From a virus (lineage: Duplodnaviria; Heunggongvirae; Uroviricota; Caudoviricetes): 13,459 nucleotides of DNA. Below, one piece after another: positions 1-9,420 of this stretch; position 1 is the first letter of the stretch, and each line of letters begins with the position of its first letter. The DNA lies in the IMG/VR virus record IMGVR_UViG_2579778974_000005; one strand, written 5' to 3'. Made by a program: the position numbers and the translations under genes. Below the pieces are notes generated by a model. The model was not told the DNA's origin. It did no database searches and worked only from the letters and a program-made list of their open reading frames with translations.

Positions 1-279
1 ATGGCTGCGCTTGGGCAGTCAATCGGTGGTATATTCCCTTCTGATGAAATAGTCAAAGGCTCTATTAGCGGATATGTCTTCGAGCAATTTGAAATCGCCT
101 GTTACACCTCACTCTTAGCAGCAGCAAAAAATGCCGGTGATACAGCTTCAATTCCAACCATCGAAGCGATTTTAAATGAGGAAAAGCAAATGGCCGACTG
201 GCTGATTCAGCATATTCCGCAAACAACTGAGAAATTTTTAATTCGCTCTGAAACTGATGGCGTAGAAGCGAAGAAATAA
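1..279 (+). CDS. yciE: 3' end (92 codons) of a ferritin-like DUF892 family protein (YciE/YciF-type); the 5' end lies outside the window
   Basis: Open frame running from the window edge to TAA at 277..279. The translation (..FEQFEIACYTSLLAAAKNAGD..ILNEEKQMADWL..) has the C-terminal pattern of DUF892 proteins such as E. coli YciF. Assignment to yciE rather than a paralogue is recollection, not verified. Followed by a hairpin plus T-run. Confidence 0.6.
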   Translation: MAALGQSIGGIFPSDEIVKGSISGYVFEQFEIACYTSLLAAAKNAGDTASIPTIEAILNEEKQMADWLIQHIPQTTEKFLIRSETDGVEAKK

Positions 280-303
280 TACCCTTTATACCATGTCCTT
301 ATT

Positions 304-330
304 GACCCCGTATATTACGGGGTCGTTTTT
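304..330 (+). terminator. Rho-independent terminator of the yciE-like gene
   Basis: Inverted repeat GACCCCG (304..310) / CGGGGTC (318..324) with a 7-nt loop, followed directly by GTTTTT (325..330), 25 nt after the stop codon. Confidence 0.6.
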
Positions 331-767
331 GTGCGGAATTAAAAACGATATCCTGCTGAGAACATAAACACCCACGGATCGAGGCGTACGCTATCGTGTT
401 GCTGTGCACCGCCCAGTTTATAATTGGCGGTGGTATCGATATCCATGTACCACACTGGTAGGTTTCAAAAAACACAATAACCAATTGTATTTGAAGCAAA
501 AAACAAGACTTTGAGATGTTTTGTTGTACCTTTTTTTTATGTTTTTAACTGTCTGATTTTATTGAAATCTTTTTTAGTTTTGCAGAAGGAATTTTTTACT
601 TGATTGTAACTTTTTCGTTTTTTTGGGGCTAATTGACGCGCAATGCTGGGCGGGGAGCGCACAGCCAAAAAAACCGAAATTGACCGCTAATTACTGCCAA
701 TCATCATCGCTCTGATTGAGCGTAAATCATTCAGGTTATTCAGTTCTTCCTTCTGCTCTCGCTGACG

Positions 768-1002: not shown

Positions 1003-1172
1003 AACCGCAGCACGTTCCTGTATACGACGTGTCTGCGGCATAATCCCAATGATTACTCCCTGACAGGATTTGCAGGCCACTCAATATCAGGTGCAGTTGA
1101 TGTATCAACACGATTCAACAATACCCGATATTTATTCCATGCCTCCAGCAACGATCTTTCTTCCTCCGTTGC
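1003..1172. repeat. Left copy of a ~170-bp diverged direct repeat (tfa 3' end plus downstream hairpin)
   Basis: Aligns by eye with 2053..2221 in the same orientation, with scattered mismatches and a 1-nt length difference; roughly 85-90% identity, not computed. Confidence 0.8.
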
Positions 1173-1322
1173 GATTTCCAGATCTACAGCATCCTGCAGT
1201 GGCGCAATATACTCACTGAATTCCTGGATGTAGAACTGTGTGGTGACGGTCTTCCAGCCATTCGGCTCCTGCTGTATCGAAGCATACCAGGCTATTTCAA
1301 TATCGCTATGCTGCGGCAGCAT
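1053..1322 (-). CDS. tfa: Tail fibre assembly protein-like (Tfa C-terminal domain; short 89-aa form with a different N-terminus)
   Basis: C-terminus ..[51 protein letters not shown] matches the conserved C-terminal segment of lambda-type Tfa as I recall it. ATG at 1320..1322 preceded by AAGGGG. The N-terminal ~35 aa are unrelated to lambda Tfa. Confidence 0.65.
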
Positions 1323-2052: not shown

Positions 2053-2221
2053 AACCGCAGCACGTTCTTGCTTAAGACGTGCTGCGGCATAATCCCAATG
2101 ATTACTCCCTGACAGAGTTCGTAGGCCACTCAATATCAGGTGCAGTTGATGTATCAACACGGTTCAGCAACACCCGATACTTTTTCCAGGCTTCCAGCAA
2201 CGAGTTTTCTTCCTCCGTTGC
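2053..2221. repeat. Right copy of the ~170-bp diverged direct repeat (tfa 3' end plus downstream hairpin)
   Basis: Partner of 1003..1172. Confidence 0.8.
2055..2087. terminator. Perfect 11-bp stem hairpin at the convergence of the methyltransferase gene and the tfa remnant; possible bidirectional terminator
   Basis: CCGCAGCACGT (2055..2065), 11-nt loop, ACGTGCTGCGG (2077..2087). No strong U-tract on either strand. An imperfect copy sits at 1005..1038. Confidence 0.35.
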
Positions 2222-2240: not shown

Positions 2241-2534
2241 TCACCCACGATTAACCAACAGCCAGACCAGCAGACACGCCACCACCGGCACAGCAAAATC
2301 CATCAGGCTTGCCACATCCCATGCACGTGTATCAAAACCGCCCCACCACGGCATATTCATTCGCTTGCCATGCCCGAACATTTCGATCCAGCGATATTCT
2401 GCCTGGGTGTGTTCACGCGCAATGAAGAACGTACAACCGGCTATCGCCCCGTAAGCCCAGTTCCCGGTAAAAAGACCAATCAGTAGCTGCGCAGCCACAG
2501 CACAAAGCGCATGAAGGAAAGGTGTTATATCCAT
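2241..2534 (-). CDS. Small membrane protein (97 aa, two predicted hydrophobic helices), function unknown
   Basis: ATG at 2532..2534 with AGGAGG 5 nt upstream, 10 nt after the stop of the preceding gene. Hydrophobic stretches FLHALCAVAAQLLIGLF..AIAGCTFFIA and LMDFAVPVVACLLVWLLV. Confidence 0.6.
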   Translation of the reverse strand: MDITPFLHALCAVAAQLLIGLFTGNWAYGAIAGCTFFIAREHTQAEYRWIEMFGHGKRMNMPWWGGFDTRAWDVASLMDFAVPVVACLLVWLLVNRG

Positions 2535-2544
2535 TACTCCTCCT

Positions 2545-3249
2545 TTATCCGATATCGCTTCGGGAAACGGATAACAACTTTAATTCTGACTCAAGTTCAT
2601 CAACTCTTTCAGTCAGCTTCTGGATATGGTGAATCAGTGGAACAACCAGACGTTCGTACATTACACCTTCGGCAACAAGGCCATTGCTGGAAATAGCTTC
2701 AGGAGCATCATCTTCGTTAGCTGGTCGCCAGTGTACAAACTGAGGGGCAATTTCTCCTACTTCCTCGGCAATCAATCCGTAGAATCCCCAGTCACGCCTG
2801 TCATTTTCGCATTGCGACCTGTACCACACAGGGCGCATCCTGAAAATGAGATCGGCGTGCTCTGAATCTATCGTCTCTACTGAATGTTTATAGCGAATAG
2901 ACGATGTTGACCGCAGTACAGACGAAATTGCAGGGTCAGGATTAAGATAAAGGTTTGCCGCCGCTGTAGTCGTGCCCAATCCCCACATATAAAACGCTTC
3001 ACGGCCAGTCAACGGGTAAAAATCTCCACCATAACGACCGCTTTCCAGATCGTTCACTTCCAGTTTGTTTTTCAGCTTATTATCAACTTCAGTTTTTGTG
3101 TATCTGGTGCTGATATCCTGCTTTGCACTGGTCATATCAGTCTGAAGCGTTGATACTTTTCCGTTAATTGAGGAAATATCTTCCTTAGTTTTACTGACAT
3201 CTCCCTTTAGCGTGGTGATATCTCCTGGAATTACTGTCGATGTAGCCAT
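2545..3249 (-). CDS. Short fibre-like protein: N-terminal coiled-coil plus C-terminal intramolecular chaperone (peptidase S74-type) domain (234 aa)
   Basis: ATG at 3247..3249 with GAGGGAG upstream. C-terminal region SSIRYKHSVETID..LIFRMRPVWY..WGFYGLIAEEVGEIAPQFV..GLVAEGVMYERLVVPLIHHIQKLTERVDELESELK fits the pattern of the tail fibre / endosialidase intramolecular chaperone domain as I recall it. Confidence 0.65.
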   Translation of the reverse strand: MATSTVIPGDITTLKGDVSKTKEDISSINGKVSTLQTDMTSAKQDISTRYTKTEVDNKLKNKLEVNDLESGRYGGDFYPLTGREAFYMWGLGTTTAAANLYLNPDPAISSVLRSTSSIRYKHSVETIDSEHADLIFRMRPVWYRSQCENDRRDWGFYGLIAEEVGEIAPQFVHWRPANEDDAPEAISSNGLVAEGVMYERLVVPLIHHIQKLTERVDELESELKLLSVSRSDIG

Positions 3250-3258
3250 TTGTCTCCC

Positions 3259-3540
3259 TCACATCCAGCCACGAAGTTGATGCTCAACAACAACCGCGTA
3301 TTTATCGAATATTGACGATTTTTTTACATCATTAATGATGCGCACGTTTACAAAATATCCGTCTTCCTTAACACATACCGGTTCGCCATCTTCAGTCAGT
3401 TCTCCGGTTTCTTTGTACACGTTACCTATCACGTCAATAAGAATATCATCCTGCATCGACTCGTCATCATAATAGCCAATACTCTCCATAAAGGCCGAAA
3501 AGTCGGCCCTGTCTGCAAATTTGAGTGTTAAATCTTTCAT
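3259..3540 (-). CDS. Small acidic hypothetical protein (93 aa); possible fibre chaperone or accessory factor
   Basis: ATG at 3538..3540 overlaps the stf stop (ATGA overlap), with a GGGGAGAG SD inside the stf 3' end. No recognisable family. Confidence 0.55.
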   Translation of the reverse strand: MKDLTLKFADRADFSAFMESIGYYDDESMQDDILIDVIGNVYKETGELTEDGEPVCVKEDGYFVNVRIINDVKKSSIFDKYAVVVEHQLRGWM

Positions 3541-5882
3541 TTAATACTCTCCCCCATTTGCGCATCAGTTAATTCTTTATGCCAGATACGCAGATTACGG
3601 ATATGACCAAAAAGATGATACTCCCCATTAGTGCCCTGCCCTCCAATTCGCAATACTGCCCGTGGAACAATTGAAGTCCATGTTGTTTTTGCCGCAACAG
3701 ATAATTCACCATTACATACGGCCTGAACATCTCCATCAGCGCCACAACGGAAGCCTGAAATGATTTTCCTCTGGGTTGTTGCCACATATTTATTACACCC
3801 TCCCATAGAAATAAAAGGAGAACCGGCATCAGAGAAATTATTACCACGGAATCCATGCGTGAACAGACCATTTTCCTGATAATCTTTAACATTAAAGATT
3901 AATGGTGATTTGCTGGGAGGGATATCCCAGTTTTTATTAACTTCAACAAGAGCACTGAATGGTAATCGGTGAATATTGTTTCTTACAGGTATTGTCACCA
4001 TGTCGCTGGAGCGAGTGCCAGGAGCCCCTTCAGTAATGATAAATGACGTCCTGTACGACCCAATCTCCGCCTGAGGCATCGCAATATCTAACGTAGAGCC
4101 ATTGGGGATAATACTGATTCCAGGCATCGCCAGGATTTCAAATCTTGAGCTGATTATCATTTCCGCATCTGCAAAAAGAGTGGCGGTAAACAACCACCAT
4201 TCACCGACTCTTTCTGCCGTCACCGTCACATTATTTCCATGAACAACATTTCCCGTAACAGGATCCAGAACTGCATCTGAATGAAAAACAAACGCACCAT
4301 TATCAGACATTTTTCCGAACCTTGCACGACACCGGGAATTATCACTTTTCGTCAGACACGATATCGTCGTATAAGAACCTGCCGGGCAGGTGTAAGCATC
4401 ATTCGTGTTTACAGCAATTGCCTGATATCCTTGTGCTGTCGGATTTTCATTAATAACAGTTATCCTTCCATAGTTAAACCCCTTATCACTGTCGAACGAC
4501 TCAACAGACACACTACCCGTGTTATTCCATGCTTCTGGTGTATTTGAATTTCTGAAATAGTTTGTTCTCTGTCCTTCAATCAGCAAACCTTCTCGTTCAA
4601 ATCGCGGTTCGTCAACTTCAGCAACGGTTAATACACCTGATTTATTAATGTATGTTGCACCTGATGCGCGTTTGAAGCTAACAACCTTATCGGATGGCAT
4701 TTTAATAACATCATCACCTACGGTTATTTGCTTATAACCAGGCGAAAAGCCAGCAAGCATATCCAGTGAATCGTTAAACGGTATCCACACATCAGGCAGT
4801 GGCTGTAAGACATATTTATACGGCTCTGCTGCCTGGCTTGCATACTCTCTGGCTGCATCCTCACTTGCTTTAGCTGCTGTCTGGCTTGCTGCCGATGCTT
4901 GCGCCGAGTTCGCCGCTGCAGTCTCGCTTGTCTTTGCATTGGTTTCACTGGTTTTTGCAGCTTTTTGACTGTTTGCTGATGCAGTGGCAGAAGCAGCCGC
5001 CGCACTTGCAGAACCAGCTGCAGCACTCTCGCTTTCGGCTGCTGCATCCTGACTGCTTTTCGCCGCAGTTTCGCTGGCTTTGGCATTTGTTTCGCTGGTC
5101 TTCGCTGCCGTCTGGCTGGACTTTGCGTTAGTTTCGCTCGTCTTCGCTGCTTTCTGGCTGTTAGCCGCAGCAGTTGCTGATCCAGCTGCTGCAGTCGCAG
5201 AACCGGCTGCCGCGCTCTCGCTTTCGGCTGCTGCATTCTGGCTATTTTTCGCCGCAGTTTCACTGGCTTTGGCATTCGTTTCGCTGGTTTTCGCTGCCGT
5301 CTGGCTGGACTTTGCGTTGGTTTCGCTCGTCTTTGCGGCTGTCTCGCTGTTTTTCGCGTTGGTTTCTGATTTTTTGGCTGCTGTCGCGGAGTTTGCCGAT
5401 GCAGTCTGCGAGGACGCTGCCGCCTGTGCGCTGTTAGCTGCATTCGTTTCTGAGGTTTTCGCCGCGTTCTTCGATGATGCCGCTGCAGTTTCGGATTTCT
5501 TTGCCGCCGCTGCGCTCTGAGAGGCGGCTTCGGCGTTGCGTGCCGCTTCTTCCACCATTGCCTCAAAACGACGCAATGCCTCCGGCATGACATCATCTTC
5601 CGTCATGGCACCGAGAAAATCATTCAGCGTACCTGGTCTGGAACCTTCATAGACGGTAATGGTTCCGGCATGTGAAGGCGGAAAACCTTCAACCAGCAGG
5701 GTGACGCTGTACTGGCCATGCTCAACATCCATGCTGTAACGCCCGGCTTCATCCGGATTTTCAGAGGCCACCGTGTTCACCAGTACCGTGGTGCTGTTAC
5801 GCTTTGCCTTCAGTTGAATAGTGCAGTTCTGTATTGGTTTTCCCGCACCATCTTTCAGCACACCTGAAATCTGTACTGCCAT
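3537..5882 (-). CDS. stf: Side tail fibre protein (Stf-like; 781 aa from the ATG at 5880..5882)
   Basis: N-terminus MAVQISGVLKDGAGKPIQNCTIQLKA..GRYSMDVE..FPPSHAGTITVYE matches the lambda Stf N-terminal domain from memory. It is followed by a long Ala/Ser/Thr-rich repetitive shaft and a distinct C-terminal region ending in a LamG/concanavalin-like motif (..RIGGQGTNGEYHLFGHIRNLRIWHKELTDAQM). GGAG SD before the ATG; the track's upstream GTG start is less likely. Confidence 0.85.
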   Translation of the reverse strand: MAVQISGVLKDGAGKPIQNCTIQLKAKRNSTTVLVNTVASENPDEAGRYSMDVEHGQYSVTLLVEGFPPSHAGTITVYEGSRPGTLNDFLGAMTEDDVMPEALRRFEAMVEEAARNAEAASQSAAAAKKSETAAASSKNAAKTSETNAANSAQAAASSQTASANSATAAKKSETNAKNSETAAKTSETNAKSSQTAAKTSETNAKASETAAKNSQNAAAESESAAAGSATAAAGSATAAANSQKAAKTSETNAKSSQTAAKTSETNAKASETAAKSSQDAAAESESAAAGSASAAAASATASANSQKAAKTSETNAKTSETAAANSAQASAASQTAAKASEDAAREYASQAAEPYKYVLQPLPDVWIPFNDSLDMLAGFSPGYKQITVGDDVIKMPSDKVVSFKRASGATYINKSGVLTVAEVDEPRFEREGLLIEGQRTNYFRNSNTPEAWNNTGSVSVESFDSDKGFNYGRITVINENPTAQGYQAIAVNTNDAYTCPAGSYTTISCLTKSDNSRCRARFGKMSDNGAFVFHSDAVLDPVTGNVVHGNNVTVTAERVGEWWLFTATLFADAEMIISSRFEILAMPGISIIPNGSTLDIAMPQAEIGSYRTSFIITEGAPGTRSSDMVTIPVRNNIHRLPFSALVEVNKNWDIPPSKSPLIFNVKDYQENGLFTHGFRGNNFSDAGSPFISMGGCNKYVATTQRKIISGFRCGADGDVQAVCNGELSVAAKTTWTSIVPRAVLRIGGQGTNGEYHLFGHIRNLRIWHKELTDAQMGESIK
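4850..5430. repeat. Tandem coding repeats (~189-bp unit, about 2.5-3 copies) in the stf shaft
   Basis: Near-identical blocks starting near 5041 and 5230, with a related copy near 4860-5040. Protein repeat ..KAAKTSETNAKSSQTAAKTSETNAKASETAAK.S..AAAESESAAAGSA.. seen twice. Confidence 0.8.
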
Positions 5883-5940: not shown

Positions 5941-8900
5941 TCAGCTAATCATGATGCCTGCAGTGGCTTTCTTCATCACCACAACCAGCAAATCGCTGAT
6001 ACTTGCTGTGGGATACCAGCCATTTACCAGCCATGCCGATACAGAAAATTCCAGTGTCATTACACCACTGCCTGCAGGCATATCAATAACACCCGTATAT
6101 ATCAGCGTATTATCCAGAGCCGTTCGGTTATAAATTTCAGCACCGTTTTTTCGTACTATCAGACGGCATGAGGAGTAGATATCAGTATGATCTTGCTCAT
6201 GTTTAGCGCCACTGAATGCCACCGCCGGAATAACAATTTGCCGGTCAAACGGCTGATCGTCATAAACCCTGACGGTAATGGTCCCTGATGGCCACCGCTC
6301 CGGTGCACGGGAGTCCCGGGGGAAAGCTTTGCCCACTGTTTTAACGAGATCGCCTTCAATCTGGTTCGCGGACAGTTTTCCCAGAACCCGGCAGTTCTCG
6401 TTAATCGTGACGTTGTTGAGCGTCCCGGAGTTCGCATTCACGTTACCGCTAATATCGGCATTTTTCGCCGTCAGCCGCCCGTCCGGTGTCAGGGAAAATG
6501 CCGGAGGATTACCGCCGCTGGTAATGGTGGGAGCCGTCAGATATTTCAGGAACACTTCGTTCATGAATATCTGATCGCCCTGACCAACAAACATCGGCTT
6601 TGTGTTGCCATTCGCAGGATTAATCATCGCAATCCTGTCCGCCGCCAGCAGCACCTGACTCTGCATACCGTCAGGGGTATTCTCAATACCGGCACCAATA
6701 CCCGCGATATAAAGGCGTCCGTCCTGCATCTGCTGCAGCTTCACAGCCCACATGCTGTTCAGGTTATTATTTGTATCAACCTGAACCTTCTGTATCTGCT
6801 GGATTGCCGCACTCTGGTCTTCCAGTTTCTTATTGACGGTCTGCGTGATTTCATTACTGACATCCGTGATGGACGTTCTGATTTCCGCCAGGTCAGGCGC
6901 AAGCTGACCGTTATCAATCTGCGTCCACAACTCCTGAGCCAGATGGGTTTTCCCTATCTCTCCTTTGAAAAAATTCAGATAGCCGGATGCATCATCACTC
7001 GGCTGGCCAACAGCCTCCACGAATGCCGATTTGCCAACGGTGTTCACACTGCGGATGTAAAAATAATAATCATGGCCCGGTTTGATATTGATACTGGCGG
7101 CTATCCAGTACAGCGCCGTGCCAAGATAGCGTGCTGTGGTTTCAACCTGCCTGATATCCGCAATCCGCTTTTCCGAGAACCAGAACTCAAACTGTACCGT
7201 CGGATCATAAACCGCAAGATGCGGCGTGGCGGTTATCTGAAAATACCCCGGTGTCAGCTCAATCTGCGACGGCGCTGCCGGTGCGGCAATCCGGAACGAT
7301 ACCGACGCCGGCTCGCCCTGCTGCCCCCACGCATTTACTGCCCGGACTGTCAGCCTGTAGTTCCCCAGAGCCAGTTGTGTGAAGCGGTAAGTGGTTTCCG
7401 TCGTCCGGGCCGTGCTGACCAGTCGCTCACGGCCGTCATCCGCTGCCACGGTCAGGCGAAGCAGGAAGCTCACGCCCTTCACCACCTTCGGCGTGTCCCA
7501 GCGGGCCAGCACCTGGTATTCCCCGCTGTCTGCGGTGACTTCTGCGGTCAGGTGCTGCACCGCTGGCGGCGTGACACCATTTACCGTGCCGCTCTGGTCG
7601 CCGTCAAAGTGCGCCCCGTTATCCACGATGGCCTCTTTTTCCGGTACATGCTGCACGGCGGTGATGGCATACGTGCCGTCGTCGTTCTCACGGATACTCA
7701 CGCAGCGGAACAGGCGCTGGCGCAACGTCGGCAGCTTCAGCCCCCATACGCTGTATTCAGCAACGCCGTCAGGAACACGGCTCACTTTCACCTTCACGCC
7801 GTCGGTGACGGACTGAACCTCCACGCTGACCGGACTCCCCTGCCCGTCAACCAGGCTTATCAGCGTGGTGCCGGAAGATGGCAGCGTGATTTCACGGTCG
7901 AGCGTCAGCGTCCGGGTCTGGCTGTTTACCGCCAGCACGCGCCCGCCGGTGCGGATACCGGCATAGTCATCATCGCAGATTTCAATGACATCGCCCGGTA
8001 CATGGCGAAGCCCTTCGGCACCCACGCTGAAGTCCACGGTCTGCGTTTCCAGCAGCTCCGTTTTAATCAGCCACAGCCCGGCGCGGTGTGCCTGCCCCCG
8101 GCTGGTACAGCCAAAGGCATCCATCTTCGTGACGTTACGACCGTAACGGAGAATGGCCTGCGTATCTTCAACAAGCTCTGTCGCCGTCTCCCAGCCGTTG
8201 TCCGGGTCAATCCAGTTCACCTCAACGGCATTATGGCGGTCCTTCAGGGCGCTGAAGCTGTAGCGGAACGGCGCGCCATCATCCGGCATCACCACATTAC
8301 TGCGGTTATAGGTCCACACCTTATCTGATGGTCGGTCCTGCACGAACGTCAGCGTCTGCCCGTTCCATACCGGCATACAGCGCATCGCCGAGCAGAAATC
8401 ACTGAGCACATCCCACGCCTTACGCTGCGTGGTCAGGTAGGCATTACAGGTGATGCGCGGCTCCGTGCCGCCAAAACCGTCCGGCACTGACTGGTCGCAG
8501 TACTGGCCGATGACATACAGCGCCCATTTATCCACATCCGCCGCACCAAGACGTTTCCCCATGCCGTAGCGCGGGTGGGTCAGCATATCCCACAGACACC
8601 AGGCCGGGTTGTTGCTGTATGCCGGCTTAAACGTTCCGTCCCAGATACCGCTGTATTGCCGCGTCTGCGGGTTATAGTTCGACGGCACCTGCAGAATGCG
8701 CCCGCGAAGATGATAATTACGGCTCACCTGCTGGCTGCCGAACTGCTCCGAGTCCACCTGCACGCCGACCAGTGCCGTGTTCGGGTAGCACTGTTTCACA
8801 TCGATGATTTCGGTGTATGACGACCAGAGCGTTTTGTTCTGCAGCTGGTCTGTGGTGCTGTCCGGCGTCATCCTGCGCATCCGGATGTTGAACGGGCGCG

Positions 8901-9420
8901 GCGGCAGGTTATCCACCACCACCGAGGCCAGATACTGCGAGGTGGTTTTGCCTTTAATGGTGATGTCTTTTTCCGTCACCCAGCCACCGTTACGCTGTAT
9001 CTGAACCAGCAGGCGGACTTCCGACGGATTCCGGTCCCCCTTTGAGGTGGTTTCCACCAGTGCCTGCACACCGAAGGTCAAGCGCAGACGGTCGATGTTT
9101 GCAGACGTGATGGTCCGGGTAATCGGCGTGTCGTACTTCACTTCCGTACCCAGCACCGTCTCGGAGCCGGAGGATTCAAATCCCTCCGGCGGTGTCTGCT
9201 CCTGCTCACCTGCCCGGAACACCACCGTGACGCCGGAGATATTGGTATTCCCCTCACTGTCCAGCACTGGCGTACTGTTCAGCAGCACGCTTTTTAATCC
9301 ATCCACCGGACCTTCAATCGGCCCTTCGCTGATGGCATCAATCACACTCAGCAACTGCGTGGACTTCAGGTTGTCCTTCGCTTCGCGCGGGGTATGCCCC
9401 TTACTGCTGCCTTTACCCAT
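5941..9420 (-). CDS. J: Tail tip host-specificity protein J (central tail fibre), 1159 aa, with a C-terminal region that differs from lambda J
   Basis: N-terminal ~790 aa ([24 protein letters not shown]..) match lambda J as recalled. The C-terminal ~350 aa differ from the lambda LamB-binding end as recalled. Confidence 0.95.

Follow-up and report, generated by a model that had tools for sequence, protein, structure and literature searches.

This report concerns a gene for a side tail fibre (Stf) in a 13,459-nucleotide (nt) stretch of viral DNA (Duplodnaviria; Heunggongvirae; Uroviricota; Caudoviricetes; IMG/VR record IMGVR_UViG_2579778974_000005), referred to below as the window, which is the right end of a lambda-like prophage beside trp-yciE-ompW of Escherichia coli. 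The product of the gene, 781 amino acids (aa) long, is probably an accessory adhesin that works without the tail fibre assembly protein Tfa and that joins a lambda-type collar domain and a coiled-coil shaft to a two-domain, lectin-like head, with a glycan as its primary receptor. The distal part that is foreign to lambda amounts to about 435 aa (aa ~346-781) and comprises a neck and two beta-sandwich domains, called D1 and D2 below; the gene that follows it encodes a small acidic protein of 93 aa, and no full-length tfa lies downstream, only truncated fragments.

Architecture of the fibre

The open reading frame (ORF) at 3537-5882 had been singled out by a sequence-only reading that gave no strand for it; it is indeed intact there, and it lies on the minus strand, a plus-strand reading of the same interval being ruled out by a translation full of stops. 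A GGAG sits 7 nt 5' of the ATG at 5882. The identical protein is in RefSeq as WP_000290529.1, annotated "prophage tail fiber N-terminal domain-containing protein", and phrog_1419, "tail protein", matches it over the full length (1250.5 bits; aa 1-780, profile positions 1-793). On the minus strand the genes run in the order tape measure, M, L, K, I, J, stf-like gene, then the ORFs for proteins of 93, 234 and 97 aa and a tfa fragment. J, at 5941-9420, has eight gpJ Pfam domains and comes after homologs of I, K, L, M and H; the stf-like gene stands immediately downstream of it, just where lambdoid tail operons have the gene of a lambda-type side tail fibre.

The first ~110 residues had been recognised from the letters alone as a lambda Stf N-terminal domain, and database comparison bears this out. 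Pfam family PF08400 (phage_tail_N) covers aa 1-131 (E 5.8e-67; 224.2 bits against a cut-off of 26.6), the solved part of lambda Stf (residues 1-94, PDB 9e7m_Ta) matches aa 1-94 (E 4.5e-48), and identity with lambda Stf is 86% over aa 1-94 and 82% over aa 1-120. Over aa 1-292 the protein can be aligned with lambda Stf at 59%, the proximal coiled coil included. In Ur-lambda, twelve copies of the Stf N-terminal domain make up a collar bearing four trimeric fibres by way of a coiled coil, and residues 102-393 of lambda Stf are coiled coil (PMC12617516).

The Ala/Ser/Thr-rich repeat shaft of the same reading is likewise present. It consists of 34 heptads (xAAKxSE / TNAKxSx) in an unbroken register over aa 111-348, with 37% Ala, 19% Ser and 11% Thr over aa 111-345. 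Shifted against itself by multiples of 7, the shaft gives a residue identity of 0.49-0.56, and by 63 one of 0.69; this 63-aa higher-order repeat has a DNA counterpart of 189 nt (2.3 copies, score 610 in Tandem Repeats Finder, TRF), beside which TRF reports periods of 42 and 21 nt. We infer from this a trimeric alpha-helical coiled coil, whose length, taking some 1.5 A per residue, would be roughly 35 nm. The stretch of shaft repeats also contains long ORFs in alternative frames and in antisense (290, 146 and 87 aa), at window positions 4724-5596 on the minus strand and 5080-5520 on the plus strand; their translations are of low complexity, either Arg/Gln/Lys-rich or Ala/Phe/Leu-rich, and such frames look like side products of the GC-rich heptad repeat and not like genes.

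Similarity to lambda Stf stops at the end of the shaft. Compared by BLASTP with lambda orf314, the gp37-like distal half of the lambda fibre, the distal region shows no similarity (best E 2.5), and the last domain is predicted to be a jelly roll, in keeping with the earlier suggestion that the tip is not of the gp37 type. The whole module of ~435 aa is shared, at 32-52% identity, with other lambdoid, N15-like, T5-like, Drexlerviridae, Dhillonvirus and rV5-like coliphages, where its bearers go by the names "tail fibre", "side tail fibre" or "lateral tail fibre"; the tip family numbers 216 phage records and more than 2,500 database proteins.

At the junction of shaft and head, the neck is 57-96% identical per 10-residue block among family members, mostly above 75%, while the heads of the same members are ~47% identical overall. 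It is poorly predicted as a monomer (predicted local distance difference test, pLDDT, 28-64), and from aa ~403 on it belongs to the stretch with homology to the head spike fibre of RcGTA, the gene transfer agent of Rhodobacter capsulatus. D1 belongs to the same family: NCBIfam NF048003 (GTA_spike_fiber, "phage head spike fiber") matches aa 434-625 with 66.8 bits against a cut-off of 36, and a clean profile of the tip family (alignment A3) finds the RcGTA protein Rcc01080 (6tb9_F3) with E 3.6e-18 over ~235 residues of neck end and D1. Motifs common to the two are ATY...PRFE...LL(I/L)E...TN and PQxE.G...SS.I.T...TRA.D. Rcc01080 (GhsB), the founding member of NF048003, is a single-subunit, beta-rich, quasi-two-domain adhesin for capsular polysaccharide (PMC7296036; PMC10218006). 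It has only 325 aa and is plugged into a capsid-vertex pentamer by a 10-residue N-terminal peptide, whereas the module here is fused to an apparently trimeric tail-fibre shaft and has an additional C-terminal domain with a predicted LamG fold.

The clean profile also matches the C-terminal appendage of the distal tail protein of Shigella phage Sf11 (E 2e-6), which was left unmodelled (PMC12724387). In PDB 9occ chain C (Sf11 gp17) this is a large appendage at residues ~260-410, described as of unknown function and homologous in sequence to D1; the homology suggests that it may be a glycan-binding decoration, like the carbohydrate-binding modules (CBMs) of "evolved" Dit proteins. A profile match to gpJ (E 1e-33), obtained in a PDB search with alignment A1, was gone with the clean alignment; we attribute it to a chimeric member of A1, P0007 (576 aa, Logan assembly, PF13550), in which a gpJ fragment is joined to the tip. 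An internal duplication of the head was also rejected, profile-profile comparison of D1 with D2 giving no detectable relationship (probability 0.3%).

AlphaFold2 monomer models of the head give D2 a LamG/ConA-like jelly-roll fold, that is, a two-sheet curved beta-sandwich predicted to superpose on LamG, pentraxin and CBM40 domains. The fold matches are the LamG domain of PAPP-A (148 of 164 residues, 2.6 A, score 14.0), the pentraxin domain of PTX3 (13.5), the sialic-acid-binding CBM40 of NanA (13.1) and laminin LG and neurexin LNS domains (10-11). The C-terminal motif of D2 corresponds to the C-terminal strand of Pfam Laminin_G_3 (PF13385). Sequence identity of D2 with the jelly rolls of LamG, pentraxins, CBM40 and botulinum neurotoxin (BoNT) Hc-N is only 8-18%, and no ligand-site or Ca2+-site residues can be assigned. 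A LamG/ConA-like tip had been expected from that motif over the last ~200 residues; at the level of the predicted fold this was right, but the extent was not, for the LamG domain covers only the last third of a foreign module that includes D1 as well. Peptidase_S74 (PF13884) has no match in the 781-aa protein, which is therefore not a fibre of the S74 type.

Table 1. Features of the stf-like gene and of the genes behind it (window coordinates)
Feature	Position	Strand	Basis or assignment
Stf-like side tail fibre ORF, 781 aa	3537..5882	-	ATG at 5882, stop 3537-3539; ORF list and translation
Lambda-type Stf N-terminal collar/attachment domain, aa 1-131 (solved part aa 1-94)	5490..5882	-	PF08400, PDB 9e7m_Ta
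Shaft, 34 Ala/Ser-rich heptads, aa 111-348	4839..5552	-	register, composition, lag autocorrelation, TRF
Conserved neck at shaft-head junction, aa 349-433 (EPYKYVLQPLPDVWIPFNDSLDM...ATYINKSG...EPRFE)	4584..4838	-	family alignment
Head domain D1, beta-sandwich, "GTA/phage head spike fiber" domain, aa 434-617	4032..4583	-	
Head domain D2, predicted LamG/ConA-like lectin jelly roll, aa 618-781, ending ...GEYHLFGHIRNLRIWHKELTDAQM	3540..4031	-	
Hypervariable specificity cassette, core of D1 and D2, aa ~445-755, between conserved recombination arms	3620..4555	-	blastn, protein conservation
93-aa acidic protein	3259..3540	-	phrog_1361, function unknown
234-aa second short fibre protein ("tail fiber domain-containing protein")	2545..3249	-	N-terminal motif MATSTVIPGDITTLK, coiled-coil-like middle, C-terminal S74
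97-aa hydrophobic protein, last gene of the module in lambdoid prophages	2241..2534	-	phrog_1443, function unknown
tfa 3' fragment, pseudogene	2102..2221	-	RefSeq "tail fiber assembly protein, incomplete, missing N-terminus"
Second tfa C-terminal fragment, 89-aa ORF, annotated pseudogene	1053..1322	-	PF02413 Caudo_TAP, profile positions 75-130 of 131 only

A hypervariable cassette and the probable receptor

Aligned by blastn with other lambdoid loci that carry the module, the gene is 91-95% identical in nucleotide sequence from the start codon to aa ~442-453; there detectable similarity is lost until aa ~743-756, where an identity of 92-94% resumes and continues through the genes for the 93-aa, 234-aa and 97-aa proteins. 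Protein conservation agrees, the neck and the last 35 residues being conserved and the cores of D1 and D2 hypervariable. Discrete hypervariable alleles between conserved arms are what one would expect for a diversifying receptor, such as a surface polysaccharide. The cassette allele of the window is present in 149 of 5,426 complete E. coli genomes (2.7%), at different chromosomal sites and always at an identity of at least 99%, with no intermediates.

One such copy is in E. coli B-LamR (NZ_CP115179.1, 554719-558360), where the Stf, 93-aa, 234-aa and 97-aa proteins are identical to those of the window and have the same WP accessions. The module, which a standard laboratory lineage thus carries, lies there in a DLP12-region defective prophage beside appY-ompT, behind a truncated J and at an attachment site other than that of the window. 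A genome scan at the species level returned Escherichia loci only, plus one contig binned as Collinsella (JAGZNZ010000051.1, 2.8 kb, a scaffold of a metagenome-assembled genome); it carries the tip and the 93-aa, 234-aa and 97-aa genes, the last three 96-97% identical to those of E. coli, and is probably a mis-binned E. coli prophage fragment.

Predicted fold and homologs together point to carbohydrate binding by the head, and we lean towards a glycan as its receptor. Rcc01080 aside, the same tip is found on lateral tail fibres of T5-like phages (EC104, AKFV33), Drexlerviridae (SECphi27, PeterMerian, tinuso), Dhillonvirus and rV5-like phages (FFH2, CarlMeissner), grouped in PHROG 1419/5939, on virion-attachment N-termini other than the present one. 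Binding of the O-antigen as primary receptor has been shown for lateral fibres of T5-like phages; for those of Drexlerviridae and Dhillonvirus a role of the O-antigen has only been proposed, and rV5-like phages appear to use enterobacterial common antigen (ECA) (PMC8594841; PMC4728585).

Several points weigh against the reading as a whole, that of a glycan-binding, lectin-like head with the 93-aa protein as its partner. The fold evidence comes from models of moderate confidence (pLDDT 76-78) with the neck outside the model, and the Pfam score of D2 for Laminin_G_3 (15.9 bits, E 0.015, aa 719-775 on profile positions 93-149) stays under the 27.6-bit gathering threshold, the best homolog, P0012, reaching 27.0. 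LamG and pentraxin folds bind proteins too, and lambda Stf has been reported to bind OmpC (PMC12617516). The hosts of an identical cassette include ones with the labels O7:H4 and O6:H16 as well as E. coli B, so the allele does not simply track the resident O-antigen type. Among lambdoid prophages the 93-aa protein stays ~90% identical while identity of the tip core falls to 46-51%, which means that this protein cannot be specific to the variable surfaces of the head. Finally, the literature searched yielded no binding or assembly data for the tip family, nor a receptor, a structure or a function of the accessory protein.

Some of these points would be accommodated if the head recognised an outer-membrane protein, its LamG-like and spike-fibre-like domains acting as protein-protein adhesins. 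The closest LamG, LNS and pentraxin fold matches do include many protein binders, among them neurexin, laminin and agrin, and both the OmpC report for lambda Stf and the occurrence of one cassette across different O types and E. coli B would suit such a receptor. We nevertheless regard it as unlikely: Rcc01080, the only sequence homolog studied by experiment, binds capsule polysaccharide; the T5-like lateral fibres with this tip target the O-antigen, as is also proposed for those of Drexlerviridae; and several of the top fold matches are carbohydrate-binding modules (CBM40, AbnA domain 4 and an alginate-binding CBM). An enzymatic head, acting as a glycanase or lyase of the ConA-like glucanase superfamily and degrading or modifying surface polysaccharide in the manner of a tailspike, is very improbable, since none of the best fold matches is catalytic, all being binding modules, the neck, the inter-domain strand (PQxE, TRxSD) and the C-terminal strand hold the invariant residues, the hypervariable cores of D1 and D2 lack a conserved acidic pair at the place expected for a catalytic cleft, and a fibre on a coiled coil is a layout typical of adhesins and not of spikes.

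Genes that accompany the tip

In place of Tfa, a different set of accessory genes had been anticipated, and synteny supports this. The start of the ORF for the 93-aa protein (isoelectric point 4.3) overlaps the stf-like stop (ATGA, in AAATGA). Among 90 tip-bearing loci, the gene comes directly after the tip in every one with a readable downstream region, and this arrangement holds across five phage groups; a homolog is found in 183 phage records, as compared with 216 that have the tip. The 93-aa protein has no relatives in Pfam, NCBIfam, PADLOC or PDB sequences. It is an obligate partner of the tip family, and we propose that it is a chaperone or a structural accessory, the chaperone role being a tentative assignment.

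The next gene encodes a second short fibre protein of 234 aa, whose PF13884 Peptidase_S74 intramolecular-chaperone domain occupies aa 116-172 (E 5e-6) and which matches the C-terminal end of phrog_3299. Lambdoid, Drexlerviridae and T5-like loci have its conserved N-terminal motif, M(A/V)T(S/K)TVIPxDIxxLK, in common, and the remainder is replaced in other loci by alternatives of 346 or 576 aa. Behind the lateral fibre genes of the other coliphages come the same small protein and, in many cases, an S74 fibre that shares this N-terminal motif. The gene is missing from mEp460 and from rV5-like phages. If the Ser-Lys dyad of the K1F endosialidase is taken as a model, the S74 domain would presumably cleave near Ser116 with Lys121 as partner, and the mature protein would then have only ~115 aa. 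It may be a short branch fibre. The arrangement has a parallel in the branched LtfA/LtfB fibre of DT57C and DT571/2, in which a second S74-processed receptor-binding protein is thought to dock on the first via a short conserved N-terminus (PMC4728585). Conservation of the N-terminal ~15-30 residues of the 234-aa protein suggests a similar docking on Stf; DT57C LtfA differs from the Stf described here in ending in an S74 chaperone domain. A link of the third-gene product to DT57C LtfB or to phiEco32 gp15 was rejected, the N-terminal 50 aa of the EC104 protein recovering only T5-like fibres and a generic tail-fibre motif.

The 97-aa protein has two strongly hydrophobic segments in a hydropathy scan (aa ~3-23 and ~72-95). 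It is 91% identical to its homolog in mEp460 and 89-100% conserved in lambdoid prophages, nearly all of whose loci carry the gene, even that of mEp460, where the S74 gene is lacking. Conceivably it acts as a membrane moron or as an exclusion factor; a search of the downstream genes for defence systems found none.

Directly after the 97-aa gene, in the window as in many other loci, stands the 3' fragment of a tfa gene, at 2102-2221, annotated as a pseudogene and best read as the scar of a recombination that replaced an ancestral gp37-like tip together with its tfa. That no full-length tfa follows the stf-like gene was part of the sequence-only reading, and it agrees with what is found, truncated fragments only. 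Gene content suggests that the tip is independent of Tfa, and we propose that a head lacking the gp37-type fold has no need of it. The contrary view, that the tip is a divergent gp37/lambda-type one whose chaperone comes from the downstream fragments or from a tfa elsewhere in the genome, might appeal to the two tfa-derived fragments that remain and to the several tfa genes usually carried by other prophages of E. coli genomes, but it is hardly credible, given the lack of similarity to orf314 noted above, a predicted fold of two globular beta-sandwiches in place of an interdigitated fibre, the loss of the N-terminal two thirds from the local fragments, and the inspected T5-like, Drexlerviridae and rV5-like loci, in which the tip is followed directly by the 93-aa gene and no tfa was seen.

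Beyond the first tfa fragment lie a plus-strand gene for a class I SAM-dependent methyltransferase (1379-2047, phrog_2132) and then the second tfa fragment, which (at about 1053-1229) duplicates 2102-2221, one subject segment matching both copies. Related loci have a single tfa fragment. With two copies here against one there, the methyltransferase gene flanked by them looks like a moron inserted with target duplication or by recombination. Farther on is a DUF4376 pseudogene at about 687-956, and within window positions 1-500 the prophage end adjoins the 3' end of yciE (a pseudogene in MS6198). A 126-nt OmpW-family fragment without its N-terminus lies at ~339-464. These yciE and OmpW fragments suggest that the phage integrated into, or recombined at, ompW.

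Proposed action of the fibre and its significance

Set beside Stf and Tfa of lambda (Ur-lambda), the present fibre is alike in its collar domain, in its Ala/Ser heptad coiled coil and in the position of its gene after J, and its role is presumably the same, that of an accessory fibre speeding adsorption. The two differ in the distal half, which is unrelated to orf314, and in the downstream genes, the 93-aa and S74-domain genes standing here where lambda has an intact tfa. In the adhesin that we propose, the N-terminal domain (aa 1-~100) would anchor trimers to the collar at the tail tip, and the neck (aa ~349-433) would lead to a head of two beta-sandwich domains per chain. On the surface of E. 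coli the head would reversibly bind a glycan (O-antigen, capsule, ECA or lipopolysaccharide core), and this glycan, as primary receptor, would concentrate the virion there ahead of the contact between gpJ and its own receptor, an outer-membrane protein. The exposed cores of D1 and D2 (aa ~445-755) would be exchanged by recombination between the conserved flanks. The 93-aa protein would serve as the cognate factor of the head, either as a folding or assembly helper or as a bound subunit, and the 234-aa protein with its S74 domain may attach as a second, short fibre.

A bolder version of this, which we consider doubtful, starts from the RcGTA relative: since that protein works as a single subunit, each shaft chain may end in an independently folded head and not in an interdigitated trimeric tip. 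The fibre would then be a three-headed avidity adhesin, each chain with its own two-domain lectin head; the head of ~435 aa and its 93-aa partner would form a self-contained, Tfa-independent cassette moving among at least five coliphage lineages; and the 93-aa protein would represent either a fibre chaperone of a new class or a stoichiometric adaptor, to which the S74 branch fibre docks as well. If true, the adaptor reading would give a lambdoid phage a branched side fibre.

The stf-like gene is a real, widespread and ordinary case of phages exchanging host-recognition modules, and mosaicism of this kind is expected. Mosaic side fibres with exchangeable tips are already known, as is this very protein, from RefSeq and from E. 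coli B, and its spike-fibre and ConA-like signatures have been flagged in databases. Host recognition takes its first step through side and lateral tail fibres, and it is these that phage engineers swap to retarget lambda-based particles. Both the design of chimeric fibres and the prediction of host range from sequence can make use of the module boundaries found here (the neck, the variable core at aa ~445-755, and the conserved C-terminal strand with the 93-aa gene), the more so as the cassette appears to work without Tfa and travels with its own small partner gene.

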